Shown here piece after piece: positions 1,163 through 24,475 of a stretch of DNA of 39,706 nucleotides. A program made the position numbers and the translations under genes. The notes under the pieces were generated by a model that was given only the letters and a program-made list of their open reading frames with translations, did no database searches and was not told the origin of the DNA. This stretch comes from Pyrinomonadaceae bacterium (GTDB lineage: Bacteria > Acidobacteriota > Blastocatellia > Pyrinomonadales > Pyrinomonadaceae). Within the stretch, counting starts at the first letter, position 1. The number at the start of each line of letters is the position of its first letter. The stretch covers positions 1-39,706 of the forward strand of contig JANLZV010000361.1 of assembly GCA_031366425.1 (NCBI GenBank), given 5' to 3'.

Positions 1163-1191
1163 TTACATTGCTCGACTGATTCTGGTAATAA
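1163..1191 (+). promoter_or_regulatory. Candidate sigma-70-type promoter for the 1263..4520 receptor
   Basis: ttacat (1163..1168), a 17-nt spacer ending in tgg (extended -10-like TGn), then taataa (1186..1191). It lies about 70 nt upstream of ATG 1263. Only partial matches to consensus. Confidence 0.3.
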
Positions 1192-1262
1192 TGAACGCAG
1201 CCAAGTTTCAACCCCCGATTGTTTGCAACTACTTCCGAAATTTCGTAAGAGGACCACATTCG

Positions 1263-4200: not shown

Positions 4201-4520
4201 GTGATCCGCGCCTCGCCCAGAGGTCAGCGGGCCAATGGTTCAATCAAAGCGCGTTTGCCTTTCCGGCGCCCGGCACGTTTGGCAATGCCGGACGAAATAT
4301 TCTCGATGGACCCGGATATGCAAACGTAAACGCCTCACTTGTGAAGAACACAGCTTTGTCAGAGCAATTTAATTTGCAGTTTCGCGCGGAAGTATTCAAT
4401 CTTCTTAACCATCCAAACTTCAACCTGCCTGATAACTTCCTGGGCTCGCCGACGTTTGGCCGGATCACTTCTGCGCGCGACCCGCGTCACCTTCAATTCG
4501 GTGTCAAACTTTTGTTTTAG
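1263..4520 (+). CDS. TonB-dependent receptor (CarboxypepD_reg domain + plug + beta-barrel)
   Basis: ORF 1191..4520. ATG 1263 gives the signal peptide [23 protein letters not shown]. CarboxypepD_reg-like segment [56 protein letters not shown]. Plug motifs [52 protein letters not shown]. The long barrel ends ...LQFGVKLLF with the terminal Phe typical of outer-membrane barrels. Confidence 0.9.
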
Positions 4521-4559: not shown

Positions 4560-5795
4560 ATGATCTCGCAACGCTGGTTCACCATCCTGCTATCCCTGAC
4601 ATTACTTTCGACCACCGCCGCGGCGCAGGATTGGCCGCAATGGCGCGGGCCGAATCGCGACGCCCTGGTTACCGATGCGGTCATACCCGCAACCTGGCCC
4701 AAGACTCTGAAGGAGGAGTGGAAAGTAACGGTGGGACTGGGCCACGCTTCACCCGTAGTGGCGAATGGAAAGATCTACGTTTTCGCGCGCCAGGGCGAAG
4801 ACGAGGTGTTGATGAGTCTTGATGCGGCGACCGGCAAGGAGCTCTGGCGATCGAGTCAACCCATCGCTTACGAAATGCATGAGGCCGCTACTGGTCACGG
4901 CAAGGGTCCGAAGTCCACTCCAATAGTCTATAAAGGCAGTGTCTACACCCTGGGGATTTCCGGCGTCCTTTCCGCTCACGATGCTCGCACCGGAAAGCTC
5001 AAATGGCGACAGGAGTTTTCCAAACAGTTTCCCAAAACGTCTCCGCTCTTCGGCGCCGCAATGTCGCCAATCATCGATAGCGGACTGCTGATCGCGCATG
5101 TCGGAGGTCACGACAAAGGCGCCCTGACCGCGTTTGATCCGACGACGGGCGCGGTGAAGTGGTCTAACGCTCTCGATGGACCAGGTTACTCCTCACCAAT
5201 TGTGGTAACCCTCGCGGGCATCCGGCAAATTGTCACCTCGACCCAGGTAAATGTGATCGGGGTTGAAGTAGCAACTGGAAAGCTGCTCTGGAAGATGCCG
5301 GCGAAAAGCCAATACGACGAAAACTCCGTCACCGCTATTGCCTTTCATGACATGGTGATCTTCGCTCGCGAGGGCCAGGGAGTGACAGCGGTTCGGCTGG
5401 AGAAGCAGGAGTCTGGCTTCGTGCCAAAGGAGGTTTGGAACAACAAAGAAACGCCCATGTACCTTAACTCGCCGGTGCTGATCGGGAATTCATTAGTCGG
5501 ACTTTCGCCGACGAAAAAGGGACAGTTCTTTGCGCTAAACGCCGCTACCGGCAAAACGCTTTGGCAAGGACCCGGGCGGATGGGTGAGTATGCGGGAATT
5601 CTCAATCTCGGCGGAAAGTATCTTTTGCTGTTGCTTAACGACGCGAATCTGGTCGTGCTCCCGGCAAATGCCACCGAGTATTTACCCGCGGCCCAATATA
5701 CGGTGGCGACCAGTCCTACCTGGGCTCATCCGGTCGTAATGGGACGACGAATTTTGGTGAAGGACCAAACGTCACTGAGCTCGCTGGCTTTTTAG
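4560..5795 (+). CDS. Exported PQQ_2/BamB-like beta-propeller repeat protein (paralogue 1)
   Basis: The track ORF starts at TTG 4524. ATG 4560 gives the signal peptide MISQRWFTILLSLTLLSTTAAAQ, followed directly by DWPQWRGPNRD. Repeated blade motifs: LMSLDAATGKELW, LSAHDARTGKLKW, LTAFDPTTGAVKW, IGVEVATGKLLW, FFALNAATGKTLW. No cysteine anywhere in the protein. It starts 3 to 39 nt after the receptor stop. Confidence 0.85.
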   Translation: MISQRWFTILLSLTLLSTTAAAQDWPQWRGPNRDALVTDAVIPATWPKTLKEEWKVTVGLGHASPVVANGKIYVFARQGEDEVLMSLDAATGKELWRSSQPIAYEMHEAATGHGKGPKSTPIVYKGSVYTLGISGVLSAHDARTGKLKWRQEFSKQFPKTSPLFGAAMSPIIDSGLLIAHVGGHDKGALTAFDPTTGAVKWSNALDGPGYSSPIVVTLAGIRQIVTSTQVNVIGVEVATGKLLWKMPAKSQYDENSVTAIAFHDMVIFAREGQGVTAVRLEKQESGFVPKEVWNNKETPMYLNSPVLIGNSLVGLSPTKKGQFFALNAATGKTLWQGPGRMGEYAGILNLGGKYLLLLLNDANLVVLPANATEYLPAAQYTVATSPTWAHPVVMGRRILVKDQTSLSSLAF

Positions 5796-5813
5796 GCGTC
5801 GGGTAGCACGCCT
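5794..5813. terminator. Short GC hairpin between convergent genes (weak terminator candidate)
   Basis: aggcgt (5794..5799) pairs with acgcct (5808..5813) around an 8-nt loop. It sits in the 25-nt gap between the stops at 5795 (+) and 5821 (-). There is no clear U-tract. Confidence 0.25.
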
Positions 5814-5820
5814 CGTTCTT

Positions 5821-6465
5821 CTAGCCCACCGCTCGGATCGCGTGCTCGTAAGCTGTTGAAAGTTCGGACTGATTGGTAATACAAATATCCAGATCGCGAA
5901 GCAGGCCGTCGCCGATTCCGTAGATCCAACCATGCACGGCCAACTCCTGCCCGCGGGCCCAGGCATTCTGCACGATCGTGGTGCGGCTCACATTTAGTAC
6001 CTGCTCAATCACATTCAACTCACCCAGTCGATTGACTCGCTTCGTTTCATCATCGATTCCCGACAGGATCGCTTCGTGGTCGTGCATTACGTCCTGCACG
6101 TGTCGCAGCCAATTGTCAGTCAGTCCGAGCTTCATGTTCTGCATCGCCGCGAGCACGCCGCCGCAGCCATCGTGACCACACACGATCACATGGCTCACCT
6201 TCAGCAGGTCAACCGCAAACTGCAAAACCGTCAGGCAATTGAAATCCGTGTGGACCACTACATTGGCCACGTTGCGATGAACAAACAACTCGCCTGGAGC
6301 CAAACCCACAAGTTGCGTTGCCGGCACCCGGCTATCTGAGCAACCGATCCACAAATAGTTGGGGGTTTGTTGCTGCGCGAGTGTTTGAAAAAATTCCGGA
6401 TCATTCTGCTTGATCTCTTCCGACCATCTTCGGTTGTTCTGCAGCAGTTGTTTTACGTCTTTCAT
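5821..6465 (-). CDS. can: Beta-class carbonic anhydrase
   Basis: Colinear with E. coli Can from the N-terminus (MKDVKQLLQNNRRWSEEIKQNDPEFFQTLAQQQTPNYLWIGCSDSRVP...ELFVHRNVANVV). Zinc-ligand motifs CSDSR and VCGHDGCGG are present. Confidence 0.92.
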   Translation of the reverse strand: MKDVKQLLQNNRRWSEEIKQNDPEFFQTLAQQQTPNYLWIGCSDSRVPATQLVGLAPGELFVHRNVANVVVHTDFNCLTVLQFAVDLLKVSHVIVCGHDGCGGVLAAMQNMKLGLTDNWLRHVQDVMHDHEAILSGIDDETKRVNRLGELNVIEQVLNVSRTTIVQNAWARGQELAVHGWIYGIGDGLLRDLDICITNQSELSTAYEHAIRAVG

Positions 6466-6575
6466 AACCTCGCCGGCTCCCGGGAATCATTTTTCGACCG
6501 AACCTTATACGCGCCCATTGTAGTCAATCTGCGGAATTAAGGTGTGTTTCTAATGGGAACATCTCGCGTGGAACA

Positions 6576-8123
6576 TCACTGCGCGGCGATATTGTAGGCG
6601 GCCATCTGGGTGGCGTTTCGCACCAGCAGTTTGCCTCCGGAAATCGCCGGGTAGTTCCAGGTCTTGCCATCGAGCGCGGCAAAGCGCGCCAGCTCAGAAT
6701 ACTGGTCGGGCGATGCTTTCACGAGCGCCAATTCACCGGAGTCGCTGGTCACTATCAAGTGACCGCTCGCGAGAATCACCTGGCCGTATCCGTAACGCCC
6801 GCCCTTCCATTTGCGGGTTCCGGTGTTCACGTCCAGGCATGTCAGAATTCCTTCGTCCAGCCCGTACACGTGCCCTTGATAAAGCACCGAGCTGTTGAAC
6901 TTATTCTTCATATTGATATTTTCCCAAACGGCCTTTGCCGAAAAATTCTTGCCGCTCCCCGAGACCTCCACCAGCGCCGCGCCCTTACCGTAACCCGCGG
7001 AGATGAAGAAACGGTTGTTATCCACCTGGATCGGTTGGGAAACATTGATACCCATGTCGGTGTCCCACGTGTGACTCCAAAGCAACGAGCCATCCTCGGG
7101 GACGAGGCCCATTACGCGAGACGCGCTCACAATAATCACTTGCCGGCGGCCAGCCAGCGTTACCAGCATCGGCGAAACATACGCCGCGGTGTCGTTTTGG
7201 GATTTCCAGATTGGGGCGCCGGTCATTTTGTTGTAGGCAACTACCGAGCGATTTGCCGAACCGCCTGGCAGCACGATCACTTTATCGTCAACAATCAACG
7301 GCGAAGCAGCCATGGCCCACGAAAGATTCGTGGCGCCGTTGTCGCTCAGGATATTTTTTCCCCAAACCACGCCGCCCGTCTTCGCGTCGAGACAACGAAG
7401 TTCGCCGGTGGCGCCGAGCGCGTAAAGCCGACCGTCATCCCAAGTCGGCGTAGCGCGTGGGCCATCGCCGGTGGAGTCGGCGAATTCGGCGTTCCAACCC
7501 TGTTTCCAAAGTTCGCGCCCGTTGGTCACATCGTAAGCAACAACCAGTTCCTGGCTGCGTCTTTGTTCAATCGTGTAGGCGCGGCCGTCCGCGACTACGA
7601 AGGAAGCCCAACCGAGCCCCACGGGTTGTTTCCAAACTGGGGTTAAGCCTCCGGCGGGCCAGGCGGTCAGCACCGGCATTTCGTCATAACGGCCGTCGCG
7701 ATTGGGTCCGCGGAAGTTGGTCCAGTAGTTGCGCGTGGCGTGCGCCGATGCAGTCTCAGTCGAAACGCCGGGAGCGTTCGCAGCCCCGGCGACGGGTGAT
7801 GACTGCGCGGCCGCCGGGTTATTGGCTTGCGTCGGTTCGACTGGCGCAGCGGGAGCGCCGGTTAGGGCTTGCTGTCGCGCCCGGTCCTGTTCGAGAGCTG
7901 CGTAATGCGCTTCGTTGGTGCGCGACTTGATCAAGCCACGCGCAAACAATACGTAGCCGGCAACCAACACGGCGATCCCCACCGTTGCCAGAATCTTCGT
8001 TTTCTTCGCGGTATCGCGTTTCAGCCAAAGCAGGACCAGGCCGACCGGCGGCAACAGGATCGAAGCGGCGATCAGACCAGGCAACGTGCGATACCAGGGT
8101 GTCGATTCTTGCGATGCGAACAT
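6576..8123 (-). CDS. Membrane-anchored PQQ_2/BamB-like beta-propeller protein (paralogue 2)
   Basis: The track ORF starts at GTG 8150. ATG 8123 is preceded by gaaggagat at 8-nt spacing (a strong SD). Two predicted TM helices (LPGLIAASILLPPVGLVLLWL, ILATVGIAVLVAGYVLFA). An Ala/Pro-rich linker follows, then NYWTNFRGPNRDG and blade motifs (VVAYDVTNGRELW, LRCLDAKTGGVVW, VVAYNKMTGAPIW, LTCLDVNTGTRKW). Confidence 0.85.
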   Translation of the reverse strand: MFASQESTPWYRTLPGLIAASILLPPVGLVLLWLKRDTAKKTKILATVGIAVLVAGYVLFARGLIKSRTNEAHYAALEQDRARQQALTGAPAAPVEPTQANNPAAAQSSPVAGAANAPGVSTETASAHATRNYWTNFRGPNRDGRYDEMPVLTAWPAGGLTPVWKQPVGLGWASFVVADGRAYTIEQRRSQELVVAYDVTNGRELWKQGWNAEFADSTGDGPRATPTWDDGRLYALGATGELRCLDAKTGGVVWGKNILSDNGATNLSWAMAASPLIVDDKVIVLPGGSANRSVVAYNKMTGAPIWKSQNDTAAYVSPMLVTLAGRRQVIIVSASRVMGLVPEDGSLLWSHTWDTDMGINVSQPIQVDNNRFFISAGYGKGAALVEVSGSGKNFSAKAVWENINMKNKFNSSVLYQGHVYGLDEGILTCLDVNTGTRKWKGGRYGYGQVILASGHLIVTSDSGELALVKASPDQYSELARFAALDGKTWNYPAISGGKLLVRNATQMAAYNIAAQ

Positions 8124-8326
8124 TTTGAAATCTCCTTCACACTCTACCACGCGGGCGGTTCATGCAATTCGAGGCAGCACCCGAACGCCGGCAAGGGCCA
8201 GTATGCGCCCTTCCTAACAGTCGGGCCACTGCCCCGTTAGCATTCACTGGTTTACGAAACGGTTGGCGTTATCGATATGCAACCGTTAGACGCGCCGAGC
8301 CTTCAGAACGTTCCATCCGCCATCGA

Positions 8327-9670
8327 CTAATTCCCAATCGAGTAAAGGTTGTTGTCACCCCGAATGAATATGCGGCCGTCAGCAATCGCCGGAGAAGCGG
8401 AAACGCCTTCGCCTAATGAATTGGTCCGCAGCACCTCATGTTTCGGCCCCGCTTTTATTACGTAAGTATCGCCGTCCTCGCTGGTAAGGAGGATCTTGTC
8501 TTCGAAAGCTACGGGCGAAGCCTGGAACAGTACCGGCTTCGGCACCCTCGCTCCTTCGTACACCACCTTGCCGGTTTCGACATCGAGACAAGTCAACAGC
8601 CCGCGGTCAGTCATCAGGTAAACATAGTTGCCGTAGAGAATCGGCGACGGCACGTAGGCCGTGCCCTTGTTATACGACCAGACAAGTTGGGAAGTGCCGG
8701 TGATATCGCCATGTCCGCCGGCCCTGATCGCGAGAGCAATCTTGGCAGGAGAACCTGAGGTGAGCACTACCAAATCGTTTCGCACCACTGGAGTAGGTAC
8801 GGCATTACTTTCTAAACCCTTGTGCCGCCAGAGTTCCTTTCCATTCAACGGATCGTAAGCAATGATCACTTCCGCCGCGCTGGCTACGAGTTCGGTGCCC
8901 TTCGAAGTCCGCACGAGCGCAGGCGTGCTCCAGGTGATGTCGACCTTGCGCCCTACGCGCCACTGCTCGCGGCCAGTGCGTTTATCAAACGCGGCGATAA
9001 AGGAATTTCCCCCGCTATCGTCACACTGCATGATCACCAGATTCTGGTAAAGAATCGGTGAGACGCCGTAGCCGACACTCGCGGTGCCGAGCTTTCCCAG
9101 GTTCTGCTTCCAAAGCAATTTGCCCTTGTAGTCGTAAGCGTAGAGCCCTTCCGAACCGAAAAAGGCGAACACGTATTTGCCGTCAGTTGCCGGTGTTGAC
9201 GAAGCGAAGCTTGCCTTCTTATGACGGCTATCGTAGACCGGTCCTTCATACGCCGTTCGCTCCCAAAGAATCTTGCCGGTATCACGATCCAGGCAGATGA
9301 CTTTGAACGTGTGCATCAAGTTTGCGCCCACCGCATCCGGATGCACGAAGTCGCTGCCGTCTGCCATTTTGTGCGTTACGCCGGCAGTTCGTCCGGCGAT
9401 CACTGCGCCGTCGAGTGCGGTGGTCAGAAAAATCTTCTTGCCCCAAATGATCGGCGACGAATGTCCGCGACCTTCAATTGGCGTTTTCCATCTCACATTT
9501 TTGGTGCCGCTCCACTCGTCCGGTAGACCCTTCTCGACAGAGACACCTTGCCCATCCGGACCACGCCACTGCGGCCAGTTGCTACTCTTAGAAGCACTAG
9601 CAGTCAGGGTTGATAGAGTCACGATAAAACTGATGACTAGAGTGATGCTGAGCCGGCTAGAAAATTTCAT
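8327..9670 (-). CDS. Exported PQQ_2/BamB-like beta-propeller protein (paralogue 3)
   Basis: The track ORF starts at TTG 9691. ATG 9670 gives the signal peptide MKFSSRLSITLVISFIVTLSTLTASA, then SNWPQWRGPDGQG. Blade motifs VICLDRDTGKILW, IAAFDKRTGREQW, IIAYDPLNGKELW, LTCLDVETGKVVY. Clearly alignable along its whole length with the 9877..11271 product. Confidence 0.88.
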   Translation of the reverse strand: MKFSSRLSITLVISFIVTLSTLTASASKSSNWPQWRGPDGQGVSVEKGLPDEWSGTKNVRWKTPIEGRGHSSPIIWGKKIFLTTALDGAVIAGRTAGVTHKMADGSDFVHPDAVGANLMHTFKVICLDRDTGKILWERTAYEGPVYDSRHKKASFASSTPATDGKYVFAFFGSEGLYAYDYKGKLLWKQNLGKLGTASVGYGVSPILYQNLVIMQCDDSGGNSFIAAFDKRTGREQWRVGRKVDITWSTPALVRTSKGTELVASAAEVIIAYDPLNGKELWRHKGLESNAVPTPVVRNDLVVLTSGSPAKIALAIRAGGHGDITGTSQLVWSYNKGTAYVPSPILYGNYVYLMTDRGLLTCLDVETGKVVYEGARVPKPVLFQASPVAFEDKILLTSEDGDTYVIKAGPKHEVLRTNSLGEGVSASPAIADGRIFIRGDNNLYSIGN

Positions 9671-9718
9671 GTTCGAGTTTCCCTTTTTCAAGAATTCAAA
9701 TTAACAGTCAGCGTTAAA

Positions 9719-9760
9719 CTCTACCGGGACCACTCTACCGGAACCGCTCTACCGGACCGC
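9719..9760. repeat. Three tandem 14-nt direct repeats (ctctaccgg core)
   Basis: ctctaccgggacca (9719..9732), ctctaccggaaccg (9733..9746), ctctaccggaccgc (9747..9760). They lie 49 to 90 nt upstream of ATG 9670 and abut the long inverted repeat. Confidence 0.8.
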
Positions 9761-9859
9761 GGGCGCCCTCGCCCGCACTGTTCGAACCCCACAATGATCG
9801 AGCCGCCAGACTCAACCGTAGTCTAAACCGCTGCTCGAGCGGGCGAGGGCGCCCGCGGT
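9756..9859. repeat. REP-like element: perfect 21-bp GC-rich inverted repeat with a 62-nt structured spacer
   Basis: accgcgggcgccctcgcccgc (9756..9776) is the exact reverse complement of gcgggcgagggcgcccgcggt (9839..9859). The spacer contains nested small stems (tcgagc/gctcga, agact/agtct). It begins 18 nt beyond the stop of the 9877..11271 gene. Confidence 0.8.
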
Positions 9860-9876
9860 TCTGGTTACGCGAGGTT

Positions 9877-11271
9877 CTACTTCGTGGCCTTCCCAGGCTT
9901 CGCGGCCTTTGCCGGTGATTCGCCGAAAGCAAAAAGGTGGTTAATCCCCCGGACGACAAACATCCCACTGGTCATCGCGGGCGTCGCCATCATTACTTCC
10001 CCGACTGGATTCGTGGCCAACAGTTCATACTTCTGCCCGGCCTTGACCACAAACACGTCGCCATCTTCGCTCGATAAGTAAATCTTGCCGTCCGAAGCAA
10101 TCGGGGAAGCCGTAAACGCGCCGCCCTTTCCTCCCAACCGTTCCTGATAAACGCGCTCGCCCGTCTTTGCGTTGTACGCGGTGAAGACGCCCTGATTGGA
10201 ACAGGTGTAGAGATAATCGCCGTAGACGATGGGTGTCGGCATGTACGGCCCACCGCGCTGTTTGCTCCAGGCGATGAACTCGTTTGAATCCTTACCGTCT
10301 TTCAGCGAGATGTCGCCGTGCGCCCCGGGCCTGATCGCATAGATTGGCTGGATGGGAGCATAGCCGCTGGTAACGAAAATCAGATCATGGGCCACGAACG
10401 GAGTGGGCGTGGTGATTTCAGAGTTTGGCGAAAGTCGCCACAATTCTTTTCCGGTAAGCGGTTCGTAACCGCGAATCGCCTTCGAACCATTGACGATGAG
10501 TTCGGCCCGCGTCTTTCCTTCGTAGACCGTCGGAGTTCCCCACGACGAAACTTCATCACGATCGGTTTTCCAAACCTGTTTGCCACTCTTGATGTCGTAG
10601 GCGGCGATGTACGAATTTTTCTGCACGTCAGCCTGGATGATCACGAGATTCTTGTAGATGATTGGCGAGCTGCCGTGTTCCCACTGGTAGTCAGGATCGT
10701 AAAACCAACCTGAGTCGAGCAAACCGAGATCTTGTTTCCAGAGCAGCTTGCCGTTGAGGGTGTAGCAGTAGAGACCTTCGGAACCAAAGAGCGCTACGAG
10801 ATACTTGCCGTCGGTTACGGGGGTCGAGTCGGCGTGCGTCGATTTCGGATGACGCTTGACCTTGGGGATTCCTTCGGCTGCGATCCGCTCCCACAGGATT
10901 TTTCCAGTTTGACTGTCTAACGCATAGACCTTCCACGTGTGTTTTGGATCGTCTTTGACCGGGGCCACGTCGCCATAGAGTCCGTAACGCGTTTCATCTT
11001 TTGCGCCGCTGGTTACGGCGGTGGTGACGAAAATTTTGTTGCCCCAGGTTACCGGGCTTGAGTGGCCGAGGCCCGGAATCGCCGTCTTCCATTTGAGATT
11101 CGTGGCCTTCTCCGCGTTCCAACTGGCGGGCGCCGGGCCCGTTTCCGAAACTCCAGCCGCGCCGGGCCCGCGAAACTGCGGCCAGTTCGTTTGCGAATAA
11201 CCAGAACCGGCTGCCGCTGTCACGACAATGAGGAAAAACAAAGTGCGGGTCAAAAATGAATTCCAACTCAT
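9877..11271 (-). CDS. Exported PQQ_2/BamB-like beta-propeller protein (paralogue 4)
   Basis: The track ORF starts at TTG 11298. ATG 11271 is preceded by ggagaaaacagc (SD). Signal peptide MSWNSFLTRTLFFLIVVTAAAGSGYSQ, then TNWPQFRGPGAAG. Blade motifs VYALDSQTGKILW, IAAYDIKSGKQVW, IRGYEPLTGKELW, FTAYNAKTGERVY. Confidence 0.88.
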   Translation of the reverse strand: MSWNSFLTRTLFFLIVVTAAAGSGYSQTNWPQFRGPGAAGVSETGPAPASWNAEKATNLKWKTAIPGLGHSSPVTWGNKIFVTTAVTSGAKDETRYGLYGDVAPVKDDPKHTWKVYALDSQTGKILWERIAAEGIPKVKRHPKSTHADSTPVTDGKYLVALFGSEGLYCYTLNGKLLWKQDLGLLDSGWFYDPDYQWEHGSSPIIYKNLVIIQADVQKNSYIAAYDIKSGKQVWKTDRDEVSSWGTPTVYEGKTRAELIVNGSKAIRGYEPLTGKELWRLSPNSEITTPTPFVAHDLIFVTSGYAPIQPIYAIRPGAHGDISLKDGKDSNEFIAWSKQRGGPYMPTPIVYGDYLYTCSNQGVFTAYNAKTGERVYQERLGGKGGAFTASPIASDGKIYLSSEDGDVFVVKAGQKYELLATNPVGEVMMATPAMTSGMFVVRGINHLFAFGESPAKAAKPGKATK

Positions 11272-11334
11272 GCTGTTTTCTCCAAGTCCGTTAGCCAAAC
11301 TGCCCGAAGGTCTAGTAGCAATTCAAAATGGCGT

Positions 11335-13422: not shown

Positions 13423-13467
13423 TGGTGGAAACTCCTCCAGACAAATGTAATTGCTTTTTCGGGTGGA

Positions 13468-14316
13468 TTACTCGACCTTCTTAAACACTTGGACATTCGC
13501 TCCCTGCTTGAGCGTGAACCCGATAACCTTTCCGGCGTCAAGGTTCATTGTGATCACGAGCCCGTCGAAGGCAGTGGGCCGAAAAGTGATCTTGTCGACT
13601 GGGATCAAAGCGAGCGCCTGTTGGCCGGTAGGAGTGGCAGACAGTTTGCCGTCTTTGAGACTGATGGCGATTTCGAAACCCTGTTCGTTTTTGTATTTGG
13701 CGACGTACGATTGCAGCGTGGCCGCGTCAACCTCCAGCAGCGGCACGGCCCCGGCCTTCTTCAACATTTCTATGATCGCTGCTTTTTTCTGAACGCCGTT
13801 TTCTGCAATCTGAGCCGCTGACAAAGTTTCGCCGCTGACCGCGGCCAGCGCGGCTGATAACGTTTCCGGCTTTGCGCCACCGCGCGCCAGCGCCACTTCG
13901 ATCAGGGCCACGTTTCCTTCCCTGACTCCAGTCATCAAAACATCGTCAACGCCTTTCGAATCTTTTTCGAGCAGCGCGCGTACCACCTCGACATGTTTCT
14001 TGTCGAGTGCCCAGGTCATCGCGGTCGCGTGATAAAAAGTGTCTTCGACACTCGGGTCCGCACCGCGCGCCAGCAGCACCTTGACGACCTCGATGTGTCC
14101 GCGTTCCGCCGCTTTGAAAAGCGCAGTCGCGCCGTAACGAAACTTCGCGTTAACCTCCGCGCCTTTATCAAGCAAAGCGGTTACAGCGGAGGCGTTGCCG
14201 TTGCGGGCCGCTTCCCAAAGTTGATCGTTTAGTTCCTGCTTCGTGTTTTGTGCGCTTGCCGCGGTCGGAATGATCACTAGCAAGAGCAGAAAAAATGTCA
14301 TCGTCCTGCACTTCAT
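13468..14316 (-). CDS. Secreted ankyrin-repeat protein with an extra C-terminal beta-rich domain
   Basis: SD ggagggg precedes ATG 14316. Signal peptide MKCRTMTFFLLLLVIIPTAASAQ. ANK repeats (GNASAVTALLDKGAEVNA, GATALFKAAERGHIEVVKVLLARGADPS, ATAMTWALDKKHVEVVRALLEK, VREGNVALIEVALARGG). The C-terminal ~90 aa (LQSYVAKYKNEQGFEIAISLKDGKLSATPTG...ITFRPTAFDGLVITMNLDAGKVIGFTL) resemble the DUF3471-type domain found after beta-lactamase-like hydrolases (tentative). Confidence 0.85.
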   Translation of the reverse strand: MKCRTMTFFLLLLVIIPTAASAQNTKQELNDQLWEAARNGNASAVTALLDKGAEVNAKFRYGATALFKAAERGHIEVVKVLLARGADPSVEDTFYHATAMTWALDKKHVEVVRALLEKDSKGVDDVLMTGVREGNVALIEVALARGGAKPETLSAALAAVSGETLSAAQIAENGVQKKAAIIEMLKKAGAVPLLEVDAATLQSYVAKYKNEQGFEIAISLKDGKLSATPTGQQALALIPVDKITFRPTAFDGLVITMNLDAGKVIGFTLKQGANVQVFKKVE

Positions 14317-14411
14317 TGAAACCCCTCCAAGCTTTTGGGAGTACCACAGTCGATGTTAAATTCGTCTGGTAAAGATTTCGACGTTTTTGAAACCGGGATT
14401 ACTGCAACGCG

Positions 14412-14425
14412 AGAATACGTATTCT
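14412..14425. promoter_or_regulatory. Perfect 14-bp palindrome in a divergent promoter region (candidate operator)
   Basis: agaatacgtattct is its own reverse complement. It lies between the divergent starts at 14316 (-) and 14549 (+). Confidence 0.3.
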
Positions 14426-14548
14426 ACATCTTTAGGGTTGCGCGTGGGCAGTCTTTTATTAAGGCAAACTGTGCGGTTGCGCGCCTGGCAACCTGAAAGA
14501 TTGCTTTACAGCAGCGCTTCACCCAGCCGGGTGTATTGGAAATCCAAA

Positions 14549-16750
14549 ATGACTAAACCTCTTTCCACTTTTTTGAATTCAGTCCTGTTGCTCGCGCTAC
14601 TCGCGACGACAATTTCGGTGGCCGTTGCGAGCGATTGGGCCGAGTGGCGCGGGCCGGCGCGCGATGGCGTCTCTCATGAAAAAGGACTCCCGGCGAAGTG
14701 GTCTCCTACCGGCGACAACCTCGCCTGGAAAGTTCCTTACGGTGGCCGCTCGGCGCCTATCGTAATGGGCGATCGCGTCTATCTGCAGAACACCGCGGGC
14801 AAGGGCGAGCTAGAACAGGAACGCGTGATGTGTTTCAACGCCGCCAACGGAAAACTTTTATGGGAACATCGTTTCAACGTTTACCTTAGCGACGTGCCGC
14901 CGCATCGGGTCGGCTGGGCTTCGCCGGTCGGTGATCCGTCGAGCGGTAATATTTATGTTTTCGGCGTAGGCGGAAACTTGATTGGCCTCGCGCGCGACGG
15001 GAAAGTTTTATGGGAACGTTCGCTCGGTGAAGATTTTGGGCTGTTGACTACGCATGGAGGCCGCACGGTTTCGCCGATCATCGATGGCGATCTGGTAATC
15101 GTCAGTGGCGTAACTTTTCAATGGGGCCAACACGCTCGCGGCGCGCACCGGTTCATGGCCTTTGACAAGCGAACTGGCGAAACAGTTTGGATTAGCGCGC
15201 CGGGCGGACGACCCTACGACACCACTTACGCCGCGCCGATCATCGCCAACGTTAACGGCATGCGCCTGCTGATTCAGGGCGCCAGCGATGGCGTGGTCCA
15301 TGCGATCAAACCGCAAACCGGAGAGCCGGTTTGGAAGTATGAAATCAGCAAGCGCGGGTTGAACACCGCCGTGGTGGTCCATGGCACTACCGCAATCCTG
15401 ACGCACAGCGAAGAGAACCTCGATTCAAACGAGATGGGCATGATGGTAGCGGTAGACGCCGGGTCGAAGGGCGAGATCAAGAAAGACCAGACGAAATGGA
15501 GCGTCTATGGCTGGCAGGGTGGATTCTCTTCTCCCGTGCTTGATGGCGACCGTCTCTATCAGGTAGACAACGGCGCCAACATCGCCGCCTTCGACGTAGC
15601 TAACGGAAAGCAGCTTTGGTTGCAAAACCTCGGCACGATTCAGAAAGCTTCGCCCGTCTTCGCCGATGGCAAACTTTATGTAGGAACAGAGAACGGCAAA
15701 TTTTTTATCCTCGAACCGTCAGCGACTGGCGTAAAAATTCTTGACGAAGATCAACTCGGCACTGCCCAACTGCCGGAACCGATTATTGCATCAGTCGCGG
15801 TTTCCAACGGTCGCGTTTTCGTTGCTAGTGATTCCAATCTTTACGCAATCGGGAAGAAAAGCACTGCCGTCGCGCACCAACCAACTCCCGCCTCGCCGCT
15901 AATGGATCCGACTGCGACCGTCGCGCATGTACATGTAGTCCCGACTGAGCTGATTCTCAAACCGGGCGATAAGGTGAACTTCCGGGTGCGCCTGTTCGAC
16001 GACAAAGGAAACTTTATTCGCGAAGAGAAAGCCGCCACGTGGATACTCGACAGTCTCAAAGGCACGTTGGCCGATGGACAATTCGTCGCCTCGACCGAGG
16101 CAATCGTTCAGGCTGGTCTGGTGAAAGCAACTATTGGAGGTGTCACTGGTTCCGCGAGCGTGCGTGTTTTCCCGCCGCTGCCCTGGAGTGAAAACTTTGA
16201 TGCTTTTGCCGCCAGCGCGATTCCGCCTTCCTGGGTTAACACGACGCCAAAGTTTGTCGTGAGAGAATTGGCCGGGAACAAAGTGCTGGTCAAGACTACT
16301 GAAGGCTCTTCCTTAGCGAGCCGCGCCCGGGCTTACTTTGGGCCGTCGAATTTTTCGAACTACACAGTGGAAGGCGATGTCTTTGCGACGATGAAACGCC
16401 GGCAACAAGGCGATGCCGGGGTGATTGCGCAACGTTATGTGCTGGCGCTTTACGGCAACAGTCAAAAGCTGCATCTTGAGCCGTGGCAACCGGAAACTGC
16501 GCGCACGGTTACAATTCCCTTTGCCTGGAAGCCCGACACCTGGTATCGGCTGAAACTGCAAGTTGAAAATTTGCCTGATGGAAAAGTGCGCGCGCGCGGC
16601 AAGGTCTGGCCGGCCGGCGAGAGTGAACCTGCTGAGTGGATGGTGGAGCGCATCGATCCCATTCCAAATCGCCAGGGAGCGCCGGGAATTTTCGGCAACG
16701 CGTTGGCGGAAATCTATTTTGATAATTTGAAGGTATATTCAAACAAATGA
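14549..16750 (+). CDS. Exported PQQ_2/BamB-like beta-propeller fused to an Ig-like domain and a lectin/glucanase-like jelly-roll domain (paralogue 5)
   Basis: The track ORF starts at TTG 14387. ATG 14549 gives the signal peptide MTKPLSTFLNSVLLLALLATTISVAVA, then SDWAEWRGPARDG. Blade motifs VMCFNAANGKLLW, FMAFDKRTGETVW, VHAIKPQTGEPVW, IAAFDVANGKQLW. A Big_2-like segment follows (VHVVPTELILKPGDKVNFRVRLFDDKGNFI...GLVKATIGGVTGSASVRV). Then a ~190-aa domain ending EIYFDNLKVYSNK that looks LamG/DUF1080-like (tentative). Confidence 0.8.
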   Translation: MTKPLSTFLNSVLLLALLATTISVAVASDWAEWRGPARDGVSHEKGLPAKWSPTGDNLAWKVPYGGRSAPIVMGDRVYLQNTAGKGELEQERVMCFNAANGKLLWEHRFNVYLSDVPPHRVGWASPVGDPSSGNIYVFGVGGNLIGLARDGKVLWERSLGEDFGLLTTHGGRTVSPIIDGDLVIVSGVTFQWGQHARGAHRFMAFDKRTGETVWISAPGGRPYDTTYAAPIIANVNGMRLLIQGASDGVVHAIKPQTGEPVWKYEISKRGLNTAVVVHGTTAILTHSEENLDSNEMGMMVAVDAGSKGEIKKDQTKWSVYGWQGGFSSPVLDGDRLYQVDNGANIAAFDVANGKQLWLQNLGTIQKASPVFADGKLYVGTENGKFFILEPSATGVKILDEDQLGTAQLPEPIIASVAVSNGRVFVASDSNLYAIGKKSTAVAHQPTPASPLMDPTATVAHVHVVPTELILKPGDKVNFRVRLFDDKGNFIREEKAATWILDSLKGTLADGQFVASTEAIVQAGLVKATIGGVTGSASVRVFPPLPWSENFDAFAASAIPPSWVNTTPKFVVRELAGNKVLVKTTEGSSLASRARAYFGPSNFSNYTVEGDVFATMKRRQQGDAGVIAQRYVLALYGNSQKLHLEPWQPETARTVTIPFAWKPDTWYRLKLQVENLPDGKVRARGKVWPAGESEPAEWMVERIDPIPNRQGAPGIFGNALAEIYFDNLKVYSNK

Positions 16751-18255
16751 AAAATACAGTTGTTAGACAGAAGTCAGAATTCAGAAGTCGCCGGGCAGTT
16801 GTTATGGTGCGGAAAACATTTGGCAAGACCGTGTTCCTTGGTCTGCTTCTGTCTTCTGTCTTCTGGCTTCTGACTTCTCCCACGGCTGCTTCCGATCCCG
16901 GCACCGCTGACTGGCCCATGTGGGGCGGCACCGCAGATCGGAACATGATTTCAAACATGAAGGGCCTACCAATCAACTGGGATGTTAAAACCAAAAAGAA
17001 CGTGAAGTGGGTGGCCCAACTCGGCTCGCAGAGTTACGGCAACGCCGTCGTCTCAGGCGGGATGGTGTTTGTCGGGACCAACAATGAAGGACTGCGCGAT
17101 CCCAAAGTCACCGGCGACAAGGGTGTGGTAATGGCCTTCCGTGAATCCGATGGCGAGTTTATGTGGCAGATGGTCCATGACAAGCTGGTCGCTGGTCGAG
17201 TTAACGATTGGCCGTATCAGGGAGTGGCCTCGTCGCCATACGTTGACGGCGATCGGCTTTATTACGTTTCCAACCGCGCTGAACTCGTCTGTCTGGACAC
17301 CCAGGGTTTTCGCGACAAGGAGAACGATGGACCAGTAACAGATGAAAAGTTGACTGGGGATTTTAACGGAGACGTGGTCTGGCGCTTCGACATGATCGAG
17401 GAAGTTGGGTCCCTGCCGCACAACCTCGCGAATTCATCGCCCGTTTCGTACGGCGATTTGATTTTCATCAGCACCTCAAACGGACAGGATGAAAGCCACG
17501 TTAACGTGCCTTCGCCGAAAGCTCCTTCGATCATTGCGATCAATAAGAAGACCGGGAAACTCGCGTGGGAAGACAACTCCGTTCAGGAACGCATCCTGCA
17601 CGGGCAATGGTCTTCGCCCACGGTGGGGACGATTGGCGGCGTGGTGCAGGTTATTCACGGGCAGGGCGACGGGTGGATTCGCGGCTACGAGGCCCTCACC
17701 GGAAAGAAGCTTTGGGAGTTTGATCTGAATCCAAAAGATTCGGTTTGGCCCAAGACCCGCAACGAAGTGATCAGCACGCCGGTTGTTTACGAAGAGAAGG
17801 TGTATATCGCCAACGGCCAGGATCCGGAGCACGGCGAAGGCGTGGGCCACATGTATTGTATCGATCCCACGAAGCGCGGCGACATCACCAAGACCGGACT
17901 GGTGTGGCACTACGACAAAATACGCCGTTCCATTTCCACGCCCGCGATTAAGGACGGAGTTGTTTACGAGTCCGACTTCAGCGGCTTTCTGCACGCACTC
18001 GATGCCAAAACCGGGCAGGTACTTTGGGTTCACGATCTCTTCGCGGCAGTTTGGGGTTCACCGCTGCTGGTTGATGGCAAAATATATCTCGGCGACGAAG
18101 ACGGCGACGTGGTGATTATGCAGGAAGGCAAAACCAAAAAAGTGATCGCTGAAATCAACATGGGCAGTTCGGTGTATTCGACCGCCGTTCCGGCTAACGG
18201 CACGCTCTATATCACCAACCGCAATCAACTTTACGCGCTCGCGGAAAAGAAATAG
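16747..18255 (+). CDS. Exported PQQ_2/BamB-like beta-propeller protein (paralogue 6)
   Basis: ATG 16747 overlaps the upstream stop (ATGA, 16747..16750). An alternative ATG at 16804 gives MVRKTFGKTVFLGLLLSSVFWLLTSPTAAS. Then ADWPMWGGTADRN and blade motifs VMAFRESDGEFMW, IIAINKKTGKLAW, IRGYEALTGKKLW, LHALDAKTGQVLW. Confidence 0.85.
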   Translation: MKNTVVRQKSEFRSRRAVVMVRKTFGKTVFLGLLLSSVFWLLTSPTAASDPGTADWPMWGGTADRNMISNMKGLPINWDVKTKKNVKWVAQLGSQSYGNAVVSGGMVFVGTNNEGLRDPKVTGDKGVVMAFRESDGEFMWQMVHDKLVAGRVNDWPYQGVASSPYVDGDRLYYVSNRAELVCLDTQGFRDKENDGPVTDEKLTGDFNGDVVWRFDMIEEVGSLPHNLANSSPVSYGDLIFISTSNGQDESHVNVPSPKAPSIIAINKKTGKLAWEDNSVQERILHGQWSSPTVGTIGGVVQVIHGQGDGWIRGYEALTGKKLWEFDLNPKDSVWPKTRNEVISTPVVYEEKVYIANGQDPEHGEGVGHMYCIDPTKRGDITKTGLVWHYDKIRRSISTPAIKDGVVYESDFSGFLHALDAKTGQVLWVHDLFAAVWGSPLLVDGKIYLGDEDGDVVIMQEGKTKKVIAEINMGSSVYSTAVPANGTLYITNRNQLYALAEKK

Positions 18256-18346
18256 ACGCTCGATCTATAGCCCAAGTCGGCAGCGCCTGATCGTAGAGGC
18301 CGAACCGCGAATCCGACCGTCAGGAAAGGCCCAGTTTTCTCCTTTC

Positions 18347-19492
18347 ATGAACGCTTTCGAATTTCAAACACCAACTCGACTCGTTTTTGGAAACAGCAGT
18401 ATTAAACGGCTGGGCGAGTTGGCACGCGAACTCGGCTTCCGGCGCACGTTGCTCGTCGCCGATTGGGGACTCGTGGAGCTCGGCTACGTCGCAGCAGCTG
18501 AGCAGTTGTTGACCGCAGGCGGCGGCGAGGTTGTTACTTTTCACGGCTTCGAGGTGAACCCTGACACTCAAATGATCGAAGCCGGCCGCGCTTTCGCCGC
18601 AAACTTCAATATCGATTCAATCATCGGACTTGGCGGCGGCAGTTCACTCGACTGCGCCAAAGGCATTAACTTTCTATTGACCAACGGCGGCCGCATGCAG
18701 GATTACCATGGCCATGGAAAAGCGACGCGACCGCTCCTGCCGATGATTGGCATTCCGACCACTGCCGGCACCGGCAGCGAAGCACAATCCTATGCGTTGA
18801 TTTCCGATGCCGAGTCGCACGTAAAATTGGCCTGCGGCAATCCGGATGCGGTGTTTCGAATTGCGTTGTTGGATCCGGAGCTGACCATTTCGCAGCCATT
18901 CAACATCACCGCCACCTCCGGCTTCGATGCCATCGCCCATGCCGTAGAGACTTATGTCAGCCGCAATCGAACCCCTTTGTCCGAACTCTACTCGCGCGCG
19001 TCGTGGTCATTGCTTGAAACTAACTACGAACTCGTGCTGGCTGAACCGCAGAATCTCGAGGCCCGCGGCGCCATGCAACTAGGCGCTTACTTCGCGGGAG
19101 TGGCCATCGAAAATTCTATGCTCGGCGCCACGCATGCTTGCGCAAATCCGCTGACGGCGCGTTACGGAACGTCGCACGGCGCAGCGATCGCTATGTTGTT
19201 ACCGTCGGTAGTCCGCTGGAATGGCCCAGCCGCTGACGACCTCTACCACGATCTAGTTAACTTGGCTTCCCGTCGTGATTCTGTGAGCGACAGTCCGGCT
19301 GAAGCTCTGGCGCGTCGACTGGAACAACTAGCGGCTGCTGGTGGCTTGCGGGGAAGCTTGAGTTCGAGCGGCGTGGCTTCTACAGATCTGGTGACGCTCG
19401 CGTCGGAAGCGGCCGAGCAATGGACGGGAAACTACAATCCCCGGCCATTTGATAAGTCAGGGGCGTTGGAGGTTTACGAGTGGGCTTACTGA
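18347..19492 (+). CDS. Iron-containing (group III) alcohol dehydrogenase family protein
   Basis: Family motifs IGLGGGSSLDCAKGI, GFDAIAHAVETYVS, GATHACANPL, SHGAAIAMLLPSV. No signal peptide, so predicted cytoplasmic. Substrate not assignable from the sequence. Confidence 0.88.
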   Translation: MNAFEFQTPTRLVFGNSSIKRLGELARELGFRRTLLVADWGLVELGYVAAAEQLLTAGGGEVVTFHGFEVNPDTQMIEAGRAFAANFNIDSIIGLGGGSSLDCAKGINFLLTNGGRMQDYHGHGKATRPLLPMIGIPTTAGTGSEAQSYALISDAESHVKLACGNPDAVFRIALLDPELTISQPFNITATSGFDAIAHAVETYVSRNRTPLSELYSRASWSLLETNYELVLAEPQNLEARGAMQLGAYFAGVAIENSMLGATHACANPLTARYGTSHGAAIAMLLPSVVRWNGPAADDLYHDLVNLASRRDSVSDSPAEALARRLEQLAAAGGLRGSLSSSGVASTDLVTLASEAAEQWTGNYNPRPFDKSGALEVYEWAY

Positions 19493-20673
19493 TCAAGAGT
19501 AAAAAGGTAAACGAAAAACCGGATGGATCCGCAGAGACAACCGCCGCGATTGAAATATTTCTGCGCATCGTTTTTCTGTTGAGTGTTTCTTTTTCCCTTT
19601 ACGCTTTTCCGACGGGGCTGCGCGCCCAGGAAGCCCCAGCCGATAACTGGTCTCAGTTTCGTGGCAGCCCGAGTCTGACCGGCGTCTCTCAATCGAGCGT
19701 GCCGCAAAATCTCCATCATCTTTGGACCTACGACGCCGGGGATTCGATCGAATCATCCGCGGCAATTGTTGGAGGAACAGTTTTTGTCGGGTCGCAAAAG
19801 GGTGAACTCACCGCGCTTAACCTCGAGAACGGCGCGATTTACTGGAAATACAAGATTGATGCGCCGATTGGTGAATCTTCTCCCGCGTATAGCCGAGGCG
19901 TGGTCTACATCGGCGATCTGGGCGGCTGGCTTCATGCAGTCAACGCTACCGACGGAAAAAAGATTTGGGCATTCAAGGCCGGCAATGAGATCAAGTCGTC
20001 CCCAGTCGTCGTCGGAGATCGGGTGCTGATAGGTTCTTACGACCAGCACTTGTATTGCGTCTCCACTCGCAACGGATCGCTAATTTGGAAACTGAAAACG
20101 AACGGACCAGTCCATTCGACCCCGGGTATCTCAGGTGGCCTCGCATTTATCGCCGGCTGCGACGAACTTTTTCGCGCCATCAATATCGCCGACGGCAAAC
20201 AAGTCTTCAGCGTTTCATCGGATGCCTACACCGGCGCGTCGCCGGCGATCGTTGGGTCATCGGCTTTTTACGGCACCTTCGATAATGAGGTGTTGATGGT
20301 CGACCTCAGCGCTCGCAAGGTCGCCTGGCGTTATCAGCATCCGGAGCGAAAGTTTCCGTTTTACTCCTCTGCGGCCGTCTCGTCTGATCGCGTAGTGATC
20401 GGGGGACGCGACAAGCTGATCCACGGACTGAGTCCCGCGGGACAAGAGGTCTGGTCGTTTGCTACTCGTGCTCGGGTGGAATCGTCGCCGGCCATTGCCG
20501 GCTCCCGAGTCTTTGTCGGTTCTAACGACGGACGTTTTTACGTGCTGAACCTGAGCACCGGCGCGAAGCTCTGGGAGTATGACGCGGGAGCTCCGCTTTC
20601 GGCATCGCCGGCCATCGCGCGCGGGCGGATCGTGATCGGCGGACAAGACGGCAAGCTCCACTGCTTTGGCTGA
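19480..20673 (+). CDS. Exported PQQ_2/BamB-like beta-propeller protein (paralogue 7)
   Basis: GTG 19480 overlaps the ADH 3' end by 13 nt, and there is no in-frame ATG before the hydrophobic segment IFLRIVFLLSVSFSLYAF. Then DNWSQFRGSPSLTG and very regular blades (GTVFVGSQKGELTALNLENGAIYW, GVVYIGDLGGWLHAVNATDGKKIW, DRVLIGSYDQHLYCVSTRNGSLIW, SRVFVGSNDGRFYVLNLSTGAKLW, GRIVIGGQDGKLHCF). No lipobox, so it is not a canonical BamB lipoprotein. Confidence 0.8.
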   Translation: MGLLIKSKKVNEKPDGSAETTAAIEIFLRIVFLLSVSFSLYAFPTGLRAQEAPADNWSQFRGSPSLTGVSQSSVPQNLHHLWTYDAGDSIESSAAIVGGTVFVGSQKGELTALNLENGAIYWKYKIDAPIGESSPAYSRGVVYIGDLGGWLHAVNATDGKKIWAFKAGNEIKSSPVVVGDRVLIGSYDQHLYCVSTRNGSLIWKLKTNGPVHSTPGISGGLAFIAGCDELFRAINIADGKQVFSVSSDAYTGASPAIVGSSAFYGTFDNEVLMVDLSARKVAWRYQHPERKFPFYSSAAVSSDRVVIGGRDKLIHGLSPAGQEVWSFATRARVESSPAIAGSRVFVGSNDGRFYVLNLSTGAKLWEYDAGAPLSASPAIARGRIVIGGQDGKLHCFG

Positions 20674-20698
20674 AGATGCACCAGCTGTCTTAACTCGA

Positions 20699-20727
20699 TT
20701 GACTTGCCGGAGATTTCGGCTTAGAAA
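20699..20727 (+). promoter_or_regulatory. Candidate sigma-70-type promoter for the M28 peptidase gene
   Basis: ttgact (20699..20704), a 17-nt spacer, then tagaaa (20722..20727), about 40 nt upstream of ATG 20767. Pattern match only. Confidence 0.3.
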
Positions 20728-24239: not shown

Positions 24240-24475
24240 TTGGGGCCGTCCTCCTCGTTGCCGCTCTCACGGATTTCATCTTCCAGATGAGACGGCCAGG
24301 CAAACTTAACCAACATCCACATCAGCAATGCGGCCGCGACCGAAAAACAGCCGTGGTAAAAAAGACCGATGGGCACGAAGCCAAACACGAGCGGGTGTGC
24401 GGTGCGCCAGTACCAGAAGTCCTGATGCGACGCGTAGAGCGCGATGACCGCAAAGAAAAGCAGGAGTCGTTTCAT
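24236..24475 (-). CDS. Small two-TM membrane protein, DUF3311-like partner of the symporter
   Basis: The track ORF starts at GTG 24502. ATG 24475 gives [23 protein letters not shown]... Two hydrophobic helices. It overlaps the symporter start by 4 nt, which is the usual DUF3311 + SSS arrangement. Confidence 0.7.

Follow-up and report, generated by a model that had tools for sequence, protein, structure and literature searches.

A conserved, probably regulated cluster of seven diverged PQQ_2 propellers in Pyrinomonadaceae shares its core with operons of other phyla

Why would a bacterium keep seven exported beta-propellers of one family within 16 kb? The question is raised by contig JANLZV010000361.1 of a Pyrinomonadaceae bacterium (Acidobacteriota), of which a stretch of 39,706 nucleotides (the window) was analysed. 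A preliminary description had noted seven pyrroloquinoline quinone (PQQ)-like propeller genes between positions 4,560 and 20,673 and proposed a dedicated exported system, with the caveat that plain local duplication could also explain them. The array is an ancient and probably regulated cluster, and a dedicated one rather than an incidental duplication, as indicated by nearly perfect synteny in 80 species genomes, a core shared across phyla and fusions between the paralogues. The propellers are named p1 to p7 in window order:

p1, 4560..5795, plus strand: signal-peptide propeller without any Cys; PF13360 E 1.4e-32; least conserved member, 31% identical to p2
p2, 6576..8123, minus strand: propeller on two transmembrane segments through an Ala/Pro linker; PF13360 E 7.5e-29
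p3, 8327..9670, minus strand: signal-peptide propeller, sister of p4 (42%); PF13360 E 9e-31
p4, 9877..11271, minus strand: signal-peptide propeller, partner of the ankyrin gene; PF13360 E 2.4e-32
p5, 14549..16750, plus strand: signal peptide, propeller, immunoglobulin (Ig)-like sandwich and concanavalin A (ConA)-like lectin-type domain; PF13360 E 2.9e-44
p6, 16747..18255, plus strand: signal-peptide propeller; PF13360 E 1.8e-25; most conserved member
p7, 19480..20673, plus strand: regular eight-repeat propeller of an ACSF4-like subtype; Beta-prop_ACSF4 195.8 bits (cut-off 133); PQQ_2 E 1.9e-47

Open reading frames (ORFs) were found for all seven genes as described. The described starts are internal Met codons, and slightly longer ORFs begin at 4524, 8150, 9691, 11298 and 14387. 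All seven proteins match Pfam PQQ_2 (PF13360) with E values of 1e-25 to 1e-47 and scores of 90–162 bits (gathering cut-off 27.6 bits). PF01011 and the model of ACSF4-type propellers are matched more weakly, and p7 exceeds the cut-off of the ACSF4 model. Pairwise identities are 20–31%, with the exception of p3/p4 (42%), which bears out the earlier view of one family of old divergence in which only the copies at 8327 and 9877 align easily. When all seven were used in tblastn, no eighth copy was found in the other 23.6 kb of the window. The N-terminal motifs quoted earlier are verbatim in all seven proteins, each of which contains W-x-x-[WF]-[RG]-G. The shared opening strand is thus real, but it is no mark of this locus, because it is the N-terminal signature of the whole family and is recognisable in quinoprotein alcohol dehydrogenases (ADHs) too.

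The three architectures proposed for the array were also recovered. Signal-peptidase-I-type signals were read from the sequence in six propellers, and p2 has two transmembrane segments instead (hydropathy places them at about aa 22–44 and 50–75, counted on the Met-10 form, and an Ala/Pro-rich linker comes next). The third architecture, a propeller followed by Ig-like and lectin-like domains, was modelled for p5. No lipobox Cys was read in p1–p7. The p5 stop and the p6 start overlap as ATGA.

Gene order was compared in related genomes, which the preliminary description had suggested as a check. The conserved non-propeller partners of the array are an exported ankyrin protein, an iron-type alcohol dehydrogenase (Fe-ADH) and a pair of DUF3311-like and sodium:solute symporter (SSF) genes; the pair had not been linked to the array before:

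Ankyrin protein, 13468..14316, minus strand: exported, with an N-terminal signal sequence; Ank_2 E 8.5e-32; DUF3471-like C-terminus E 6.7e-5; first gene of the leftward operon
Fe-ADH, 18347..19492, plus strand: cytoplasmic iron-type alcohol dehydrogenase between p6 and p7, with Fe-ADH and ADH_Fe_C domains
SSF, 22611..24239, minus strand: sodium:solute symporter, monocarboxylate/PutP-like; PF00474; convergent with the p5 operon
DUF3311-like small membrane protein, 24236..24475, minus strand: ORF coupled translationally to SSF by a 4-nt stop/start overlap

The top NCBIfam match of Fe-ADH is ErcA, at 266 bits below the cut-off of 550, followed by GbsB and FucO. SSF matches NCBIfam models at the superfamily level only.

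A scan with one genome per species returned 80 loci, all from Pyrinomonadaceae/Blastocatellia (Acidobacteriota), and p4 orthologues (73–87% identity) are present in 80/80. The propeller ORFs of these loci fall into seven clean orthogroups, to which some genomes add p3b, p4' and p2' types. In the loci having both genes of a pair, p5–p6 are adjacent in 56/56, Fe-ADH–p7 in 45/45, p4–p3 in 65/65 and p3–p2 in 56/56, and the ankyrin gene and p5 are divergent neighbours in 61/61. The ankyrin gene was found in 72 loci and stands directly upstream of p4 in 68 of them. SSF adjoins p7 in 21/21 loci, or stands after the M28 peptidase gene. Orthologues of p2 are present in 57 loci, and p2 through p7 are all present in 35. 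In contrast, p1 orthologues (62–75%) occur in only 13/80 loci, always adjoining p2. The p6 orthologues are 77–89% identical, the highest in the array and above Fe-ADH and the ankyrin protein, indicating strong purifying selection. Gene order is therefore nearly invariant in these soil Acidobacteria, and because the orthologues of each copy keep it in up to 80 species genomes, the clustering is not due to chance.

Some relatives carry variants of the array. Additional propeller types that the window lacks occur in L009, L011, L013, L017, L025, L035 and other loci: a p4-like copy (53–59%) between p6 and Fe-ADH, a second p3 type (p3b, 57–66%), which many relatives have, and a p2-like copy (38–39%). 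In L037, L057 and L067 the ankyrin–p4 pair alone is kept at the site and the neighbourhood is otherwise different.

The core of the cluster was also found outside Acidobacteriota. Verrucomicrobiota and Planctomycetota commonly encode p5-type proteins, which are about 775 aa long. There, a divergent MarR gene, often with a p2-type gene, faces an operon of p5, p6, DUF3311, SSF, a short ANL enzyme, an aldehyde dehydrogenase (ALDH)-family protein and Fe-ADH, which continues with, sometimes, a p7-type gene, and with a HemN-like radical-SAM protein, a small protein, a flavoprotein and a 4HBT thioesterase. Most stops and starts overlap in the Planctomycetota and Verrucomicrobiota contigs, and 80 further metagenome loci show the same order, with no exception where the sequence extends. 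Compared with the window counterparts, identities are 52–58% for SSF, 50–52% for Fe-ADH, 46–48% for p6, 36–40% for p7 (which sits after Fe-ADH in Planctomycetota loci), 33–36% for p5 and 33–36% for p2 (which adjoins MarR in the operons of both phyla). The DUF3311-like ORF of the window is 47–59% identical to the small gene before SSF in these operons, and those genes match DUF3311. In rhizobia, DUF3311 genes accompany the monocarboxylate symporter MctP (PMC9100948).

The window itself shows the core of this operon, with a p5-type gene directly followed by a p6-type gene, and with Fe-ADH, a p7-type gene and DUF3311 plus SSF together in 18347-24475 (36–58%). The EhpF-like ANL, ALDH, HemN-like radical-SAM, halogenase-like FAD enzyme and MarR genes are absent from the window, and the ankyrin protein was not found in the Planctomycetota/Verrucomicrobiota loci. 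The cross-phylum identities (33–58%) are much higher than those among the window paralogues (20–31%), indicating that the paralogues are older than the spread of the cluster across phyla. One Planctomycetota-type contig (JAJDCQ010000099.1, locus L087) has a variant, in which a p5–p6 fusion, DUF3311 and SSF stand amid four more propellers, a glycosyltransferase, a Laminin_G_3 protein and several Ser/Thr kinases; this variant has no Fe-ADH within 10 kb.

Different members of the window set are joined in single polypeptides elsewhere. An ordinary homologue search with p6 returned close relatives only (77–90% identity), and p6 was searched exhaustively against 1.84 billion cluster representatives (50% identity). 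This search matched 35,383 clusters at E<=1e-3, of which 1,266 reached E<=1e-30. At least two propellers are present in 18 representatives, and each propeller was typed against the window paralogues. These include p6–p7 fusions (P0243, P0246), a p4–p6 fusion (P0248), a p6–p3 fusion (P0251), p5 with its tail followed by p6 (P0279), a further p5–p6 fusion (P0394) and p6–p2-type fusions in eight representatives. Of the best 150 p6 representatives, 37 are transducers of the BlaR1/Peptidase_M56 type, in which the HExxH motif is intact and a p6-type propeller forms the C-terminal domain, and M56–p6–p7 proteins were found as well (P0253, P0255, P0338). Other fusions among the best 150 join p6 to HEAT repeats, a caspase-like domain, an extracytoplasmic function (ECF) sigma/anti-sigma module, or a kinase with WD40 repeats.

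The cluster also carries a conserved, putative regulatory element. The spacer between the ankyrin gene and p5 contains a block of about 60 nt with column conservation of at least 80% in 68 loci:

Candidate promoter/operator upstream of p5, 14385..14445, plus strand: TTGAAA-18-GAGAAT and the perfect palindrome GAATACGTATTC at 14413-14424

The first element is a sigma-70-like, promoter-like match, and the 12-bp palindrome, which is unique in the window, overlaps its -10 element. Related AATACG..CGTATT inverted repeats were found in the MarR–p5 spacers of the other two phyla. The regulator is likely a MarR-type, ligand-released repressor; the window has no such gene. No second good copy of the palindrome was found in the window, and a regulon is therefore not definable from this single site. 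Neither the window nor five related loci contain a match to an Rfam family, riboswitches included. A terminator/promoter scan of the window gave results at or below shuffled expectation, save for the conserved p5 promoter.

The preliminary description had called for a blade count by structure prediction. Among p1–p7 the eight-blade fold was read from the p6 model alone. The AlphaFold model of p6 (predicted local distance difference test score (pLDDT) 80, predicted template-modelling score (pTM) 0.80) has 32 strands in eight four-stranded blades, and the N-terminal strand closes the propeller. The nearest solved folds are BamB (template-modelling score (TM-score) 0.75–0.82, normalised to the target), Cake8 (0.90) and YxaL (0.80); tetrathionate hydrolase and XoxF rank below BamB. 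Within orthogroups, nearly all invariant polar stretches of p6 lie in the D-to-A and B-to-C loops of the top face, on which propellers bind their ligands. In the p6 subfamily as a whole (36–50% identity), 44 positions are at least 90% conserved, including R65, N66, N112, N113, D124, D154, R177, N328 and R394.

The C-terminal part of p5 (about 300 residues) has no Pfam match even at E 10, and a profile search against PDB sequences returned noise only. When modelled (pLDDT 85), it folds into an Ig-like sandwich and, C-terminal to it, a ConA-like jelly roll. Its Foldseek neighbours are lectin or carbohydrate-binding module (CBM) domains of galactocerebrosidase, sialidases and GH43 enzymes, Big_2-CBM56, CBM66 and legume lectins. 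In p5, 110 positions are invariant across phyla, with Arg, Trp, Tyr, Lys, Glu, Asp and Asn dense in the lectin-like domain. One planctomycete p5 orthologue (L085, 3504-5900) begins with a lipobox-like LSGC, suggesting that p5 may be lipid-anchored in some lineages; window p5 has an ordinary signal peptide.

Other genes stand between or beside the propellers:

TonB-dependent-type outer-membrane barrel, 1191..4520, plus strand: CarboxypepD_reg and OMP_b-brl_4; Pfam E 9e-255; flanks the array
Beta-carbonic anhydrase, 5821-6465, minus strand
S9 peptidase, 11335-13422, minus strand
M28 peptidase, 20767-22503, plus strand

Together with the ankyrin protein, Fe-ADH and the SSF symporter, these are the neighbours of the array. 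The S9, M28, ankyrin, carbonic anhydrase and Fe-ADH genes that had been described as interleaved are all there, but three of them do not belong to the conserved set. The S9 peptidase is found only in the four closest genomes, M28 in 11 loci and the carbonic anhydrase in 0/80, and this rarity marks the three as lineage-specific insertions rather than components. The TonB-type barrel adjoins p2 or p1 in 26 related loci and is replaced by other genes elsewhere, so it is possibly, and weakly, linked to the array. The Methylacidiphilales cluster of L086 likewise has a TonB receptor at its flank. The remainder of the window contains housekeeping and regulatory genes. An exported 427-aa protein with a long Pro/Thr/Ala-rich C-terminal tail and no Pfam match is encoded at 28791-30074 (minus strand). 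A HAMP histidine kinase and a sigma-54-dependent NtrC-type response regulator are encoded at 32498-35427 (plus strand) and show no synteny with the array in the loci compared, beyond one or two stray matches.

What could such a cluster do? The reading that we favour, with confidence a little short of even, is that it encodes a conserved, regulated multi-propeller module outside the cytoplasm, whose task is to bind or process a small organic ligand in connection with uptake and with reduction in the cytoplasm. Non-identical, PQQ-free PQQ_2 propellers, either secreted or membrane-tethered, would cooperate outside the cytoplasm to recognise, and possibly process, a small organic ligand or glycoconjugate. 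Its oldest part would consist of p5 with its Ig-like and lectin-like tail, p6, p7 and the membrane-anchored p2 as an ancient core of the module, and the p3/p4 pair, the exported ankyrin protein and p1 would be acidobacterial additions. The DUF3311/SSF carboxylate-type symporter and the cytoplasmic Fe-ADH are predicted to be functionally coupled to the module, which may make the whole the periplasmic entry to a pathway that captures, takes up and reduces (or tailors) a compound. A repressor on the conserved palindrome over the p5 promoter would switch the cluster. The p6(-p7) unit serves as the outer domain of transducers, p5 has a lectin-type tail and no known catalytic signature was recognised; for these reasons the propellers probably bind a ligand instead of catalysing, and this ligand or its product may be the substrate of the symporter.

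Several observations weigh against this reading. Synteny inside one bacterial family, taken alone, could partly reflect limited divergence; the main argument is carried by the cross-phylum data and the fusions. In Pyrinomonadaceae, SSF is convergent with the p5 operon and not co-transcribed with it, and EhpF/EhpG-like genes are absent within 10 kb. In the p6 subfamily as a whole, invariant residues are modestly enriched on the top face, most clearly in the B-to-C loops. Furthermore, tetrathionate hydrolase, as an analogous protein, shows that a PQQ_2 fold can catalyse without a cofactor.

This last point leads to the most serious alternative, that the propellers are cofactor-independent periplasmic or surface enzymes of the hydrolase or lyase type. 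They would act on a polymer or conjugate to which the lectin-like domain targets p5, and the product would be imported by SSF and reduced by Fe-ADH. The domain order of p5 mirrors the catalytic-domain/linker/CBM layout of the glycosidases that dominate its fold matches, and many invariant Asp, Arg, His and Asn residues lie in the p5 and p6 loops. The operon is also shared with a transporter and catabolic-type enzymes. Tetrathionate hydrolase is a neighbour in both sequence and fold, but its TM-scores are just about 0.4, and the propellers match the catalytic motif of no known enzyme family. Seven paralogues would mean seven activities, and the p6-type sensor domains in M56, ECF and kinase proteins fit binding better. 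We consider enzymes of this kind rather unlikely.

Other alternatives depend on the cytoplasmic genes of the operons in other phyla. EhpF and EhpG, as a pair, presumably reduce an aromatic carboxylate to the aldehyde. The short ANL enzyme is a full-length EhpF homologue (PDB 3l2k/3hgu, E 1e-44). In phenazine clusters ehpF is followed by ehpG (table in PMC11278526), and the ANL–ALDH order of the operon parallels this arrangement. Among known proteins, the flavin-dependent halogenases PltA, Mpy16, CndH and CmlS come nearest to the flavoprotein (E 9e-65 to 2e-46), which has a WxWxIP motif; weaker NCBIfam similarity was found to QhpG, LodB and geranylgeranyl reductases. A QhpG/LodB-type maturation of a protein-derived quinone was considered and down-weighted, since the flavoprotein is far closer to PltA-type halogenases, the WxWxIP motif is present and the propellers have Sec-type signals. 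Quinone tailoring of the MenK/MenJ type is conceivable as well. The radical-SAM protein of the operon is HemN/NocN-like. The small protein (x157) has no family match, and a chorismate-lyase-like role for it would therefore be an analogy with baaA only. For a brominated anisic acid of a planctomycete, synthesis by a pair of chorismate lyase and halogenase has been suggested, but without genetic proof (bioRxiv 10.1101/723874). The radical-SAM protein (51–53%) and the flavoprotein (43–45%) are also encoded just past the p1/p2 end in 17–18/80 Pyrinomonadaceae loci, for example in L011:

HemN-like radical-SAM gene, L011 18475-19794: orthologous to the gene of the operon in other phyla
Flavin-dependent-halogenase-like gene, L011 19894-21243: WFWYIP motif; orthologous to the gene of the operon in other phyla

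Together, these cytoplasmic genes of loci outside the window suggest that the small molecule handled in the cytoplasm is an aromatic acid, aldehyde or alcohol. It is conceivable, though decidedly unlikely in this full form, that the propellers are the extracytoplasmic half of a small-molecule cycle. The compound that they bind, or oxidise, would be a planar aromatic carboxylate or an aryl alcohol, and it would be taken up by DUF3311/SSF and re-reduced or tailored by the EhpF/EhpG-like reductase, Fe-ADH, halogenase and radical-SAM enzymes, and the p6–p7 unit would be wired elsewhere to BlaR1-type, ECF or kinase sensing of the compound. Candidate ligands are a halogenated hydroxybenzoate/anisyl-type metabolite or a heteroaromatic polycarboxylate (phenazine- or PQQ-like).

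There is only a slight chance that the propellers are instead quinoprotein-like proteins with a cofactor or shuttle of their own, a non-PQQ aromatic molecule made or re-reduced by the EhpF/EhpG-like reductase, Fe-ADH, PltA-like halogenase and HemN-like radical-SAM protein. Such redox or ligand cycling would account for the translational coupling of the other-phyla propellers to the EhpF homologue, its ALDH-family partner, Fe-ADH, the halogenase-like flavoprotein and the HemN/NocN-like protein. It would also fit the radical-SAM/halogenase pair beside the array in relatives and the pair proposed for brominated benzoate in the planctomycete. However, only Fe-ADH is present in the window, the compact BamB-like propellers lack long PQQ-holding loops, SSF imports and does not export, and x157 has no family match.

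Plain local duplication of an expanded family without joint function, the caveat of the preliminary description, is contradicted by the comparisons above and is highly improbable. The family is huge, as the cluster count for p6 alone indicates, p3/p4 is a relatively recent pair, and the copy number varies in relatives through the extra p3b, p4' and p2' types. Nevertheless, each paralogue has its own orthogroup in a fixed order in up to 80 species. In addition, p5, p6, p7 and p2 are nearer to their counterparts in other phyla (33–48%) than to each other (20–28%), and the fusions unite different paralogue types.

A role as BamB-like scaffolds of envelope biogenesis, in outer-membrane protein assembly or another machine, is equally improbable. 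BamB is the nearest solved fold, and the Joint Genome Institute (JGI) annotation gives such propellers the name BamB. In the searches with curated models that had been proposed earlier, however, all seven propellers missed the cut-offs of the BamB equivalog TIGR03300 (57–145 bits, cut-off 285) and of BamB NF008351 (41–110 bits, cut-off 423). There are seven copies and no lipobox, the context is a transporter with metabolic enzymes, and no bam genes were found in the window.

Least credible of all are ordinary PQQ- or lanthanide-dependent dehydrogenases working on scavenged PQQ, for which weak local matches to PF01011 and TIGR03075 and the TonB-type barrel next door would speak, because the propellers are about 380 aa versus 550–600 aa, all seven miss the cut-off of the PQQ-dependent alcohol dehydrogenase model TIGR03075 (31–79 bits, cut-off 480), and none contains a CC dipeptide. 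The preliminary description had argued in the same direction, and its argument holds: no pqq-like genes were found among the window ORFs scanned. Searches of PDB sequences returned blade-level similarity only, to BamB, designed Cake proteins, quinoprotein ADHs and tetrathionate hydrolase, and the alignments with quinoprotein ADH chains span single blades, too little to place the columns of the Ca/Ln and PQQ ligand residues (Glu, Asn, Asp base, Arg). The missed cut-offs, the lack of a lipobox and the lack of a Cys-Cys pair exclude both identities. By every available test, p1–p7 are compact BamB-like propellers, and neither BamB nor quinoprotein dehydrogenases.

Few unexplained families of exported proteins have expanded as much in Acidobacteriota, Planctomycetota and Verrucomicrobiota as the PQQ_2 or 'BamB-like' propellers. 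A fixed set of paralogues, fused to each other and to transducers and with co-operonic partners in three phyla, turns this annotation dead end into a testable system with named candidates, namely the partners p5–p6–p7 and ankyrin–p4, one operator and the ligand classes. If the propellers do form the outer half of a small-molecule cycle, this would give the very large 'dark' PQQ_2 branch its first function and ligand class. The fold family is known; the multi-paralogue set, the fusions and the cross-phylum operon appear to be new, as no description of them was found in the searchable literature. A 2026 preprint on six-bladed PQQ/lanthanide enzymes was considered and is not relevant to the cluster.

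Compared with known systems, the propellers are closest in structure to BamB (YfgL), the lipoprotein of the BAM complex. Both are compact eight-bladed PQQ_2 propellers with about 45–50 aa per blade, BamB is the best structural match of the p6 model, and sequence similarity exists at the repeat level. In contrast to BamB, the window set has no lipobox, scores below the equivalog cut-off, comprises seven diverged copies and carries Ig-like and lectin-like domains on p5, and it has a symporter and Fe-ADH, not genes of envelope biogenesis, as partners in the operon. The quinoprotein ADHs and methanol dehydrogenases (MxaF/XoxF) belong to the same superfamily and are periplasmic, with a Trp-docking-type repeat and a homologous N-terminal W-x-x-x-G segment. 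The window propellers are about 200 residues shorter than these enzymes, have no vicinal disulfide and score far under the cut-off. The Acido-empty-quinoprotein group A (TIGR04528) contains acidobacterial quinoprotein homologues presumed to lack PQQ, but the window proteins belong to a different, shorter, BamB-like clade, and all seven miss its cut-off of 650 (31–62 bits).

Tetrathionate hydrolase (PDB 6l8a, 7cqy) is a PQQ_2-type propeller that works without PQQ and a sequence neighbour of the array (E 2e-7 to 5e-10 across about 50–115 residues). However, the TM-score is low (0.38–0.47), no catalytic signature common to both emerged, and no sulfur-oxidation genes lie near the array. The EhpF/EhpG and planctomycete baaA/baaB pairs resemble the p5–p6 operons of the other phyla, which carry an EhpF homologue with an ALDH-family gene and a halogenase-like flavoprotein after a small gene. 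Such genes are absent from the window, and neither published cluster was reported with propellers.

In the BlaR1/MecR1-type M56 transducers a propeller type of the window set is found in another setting. The sensor of BlaR1 proper is a penicillin-binding domain, not a propeller, and the window proteins are free-standing, with no M56 domain. In contrast, the M56 proteins among the 150 nearest p6 representatives carry a p6-type propeller as their C-terminal extracytoplasmic domain, sometimes followed by a p7-type propeller.

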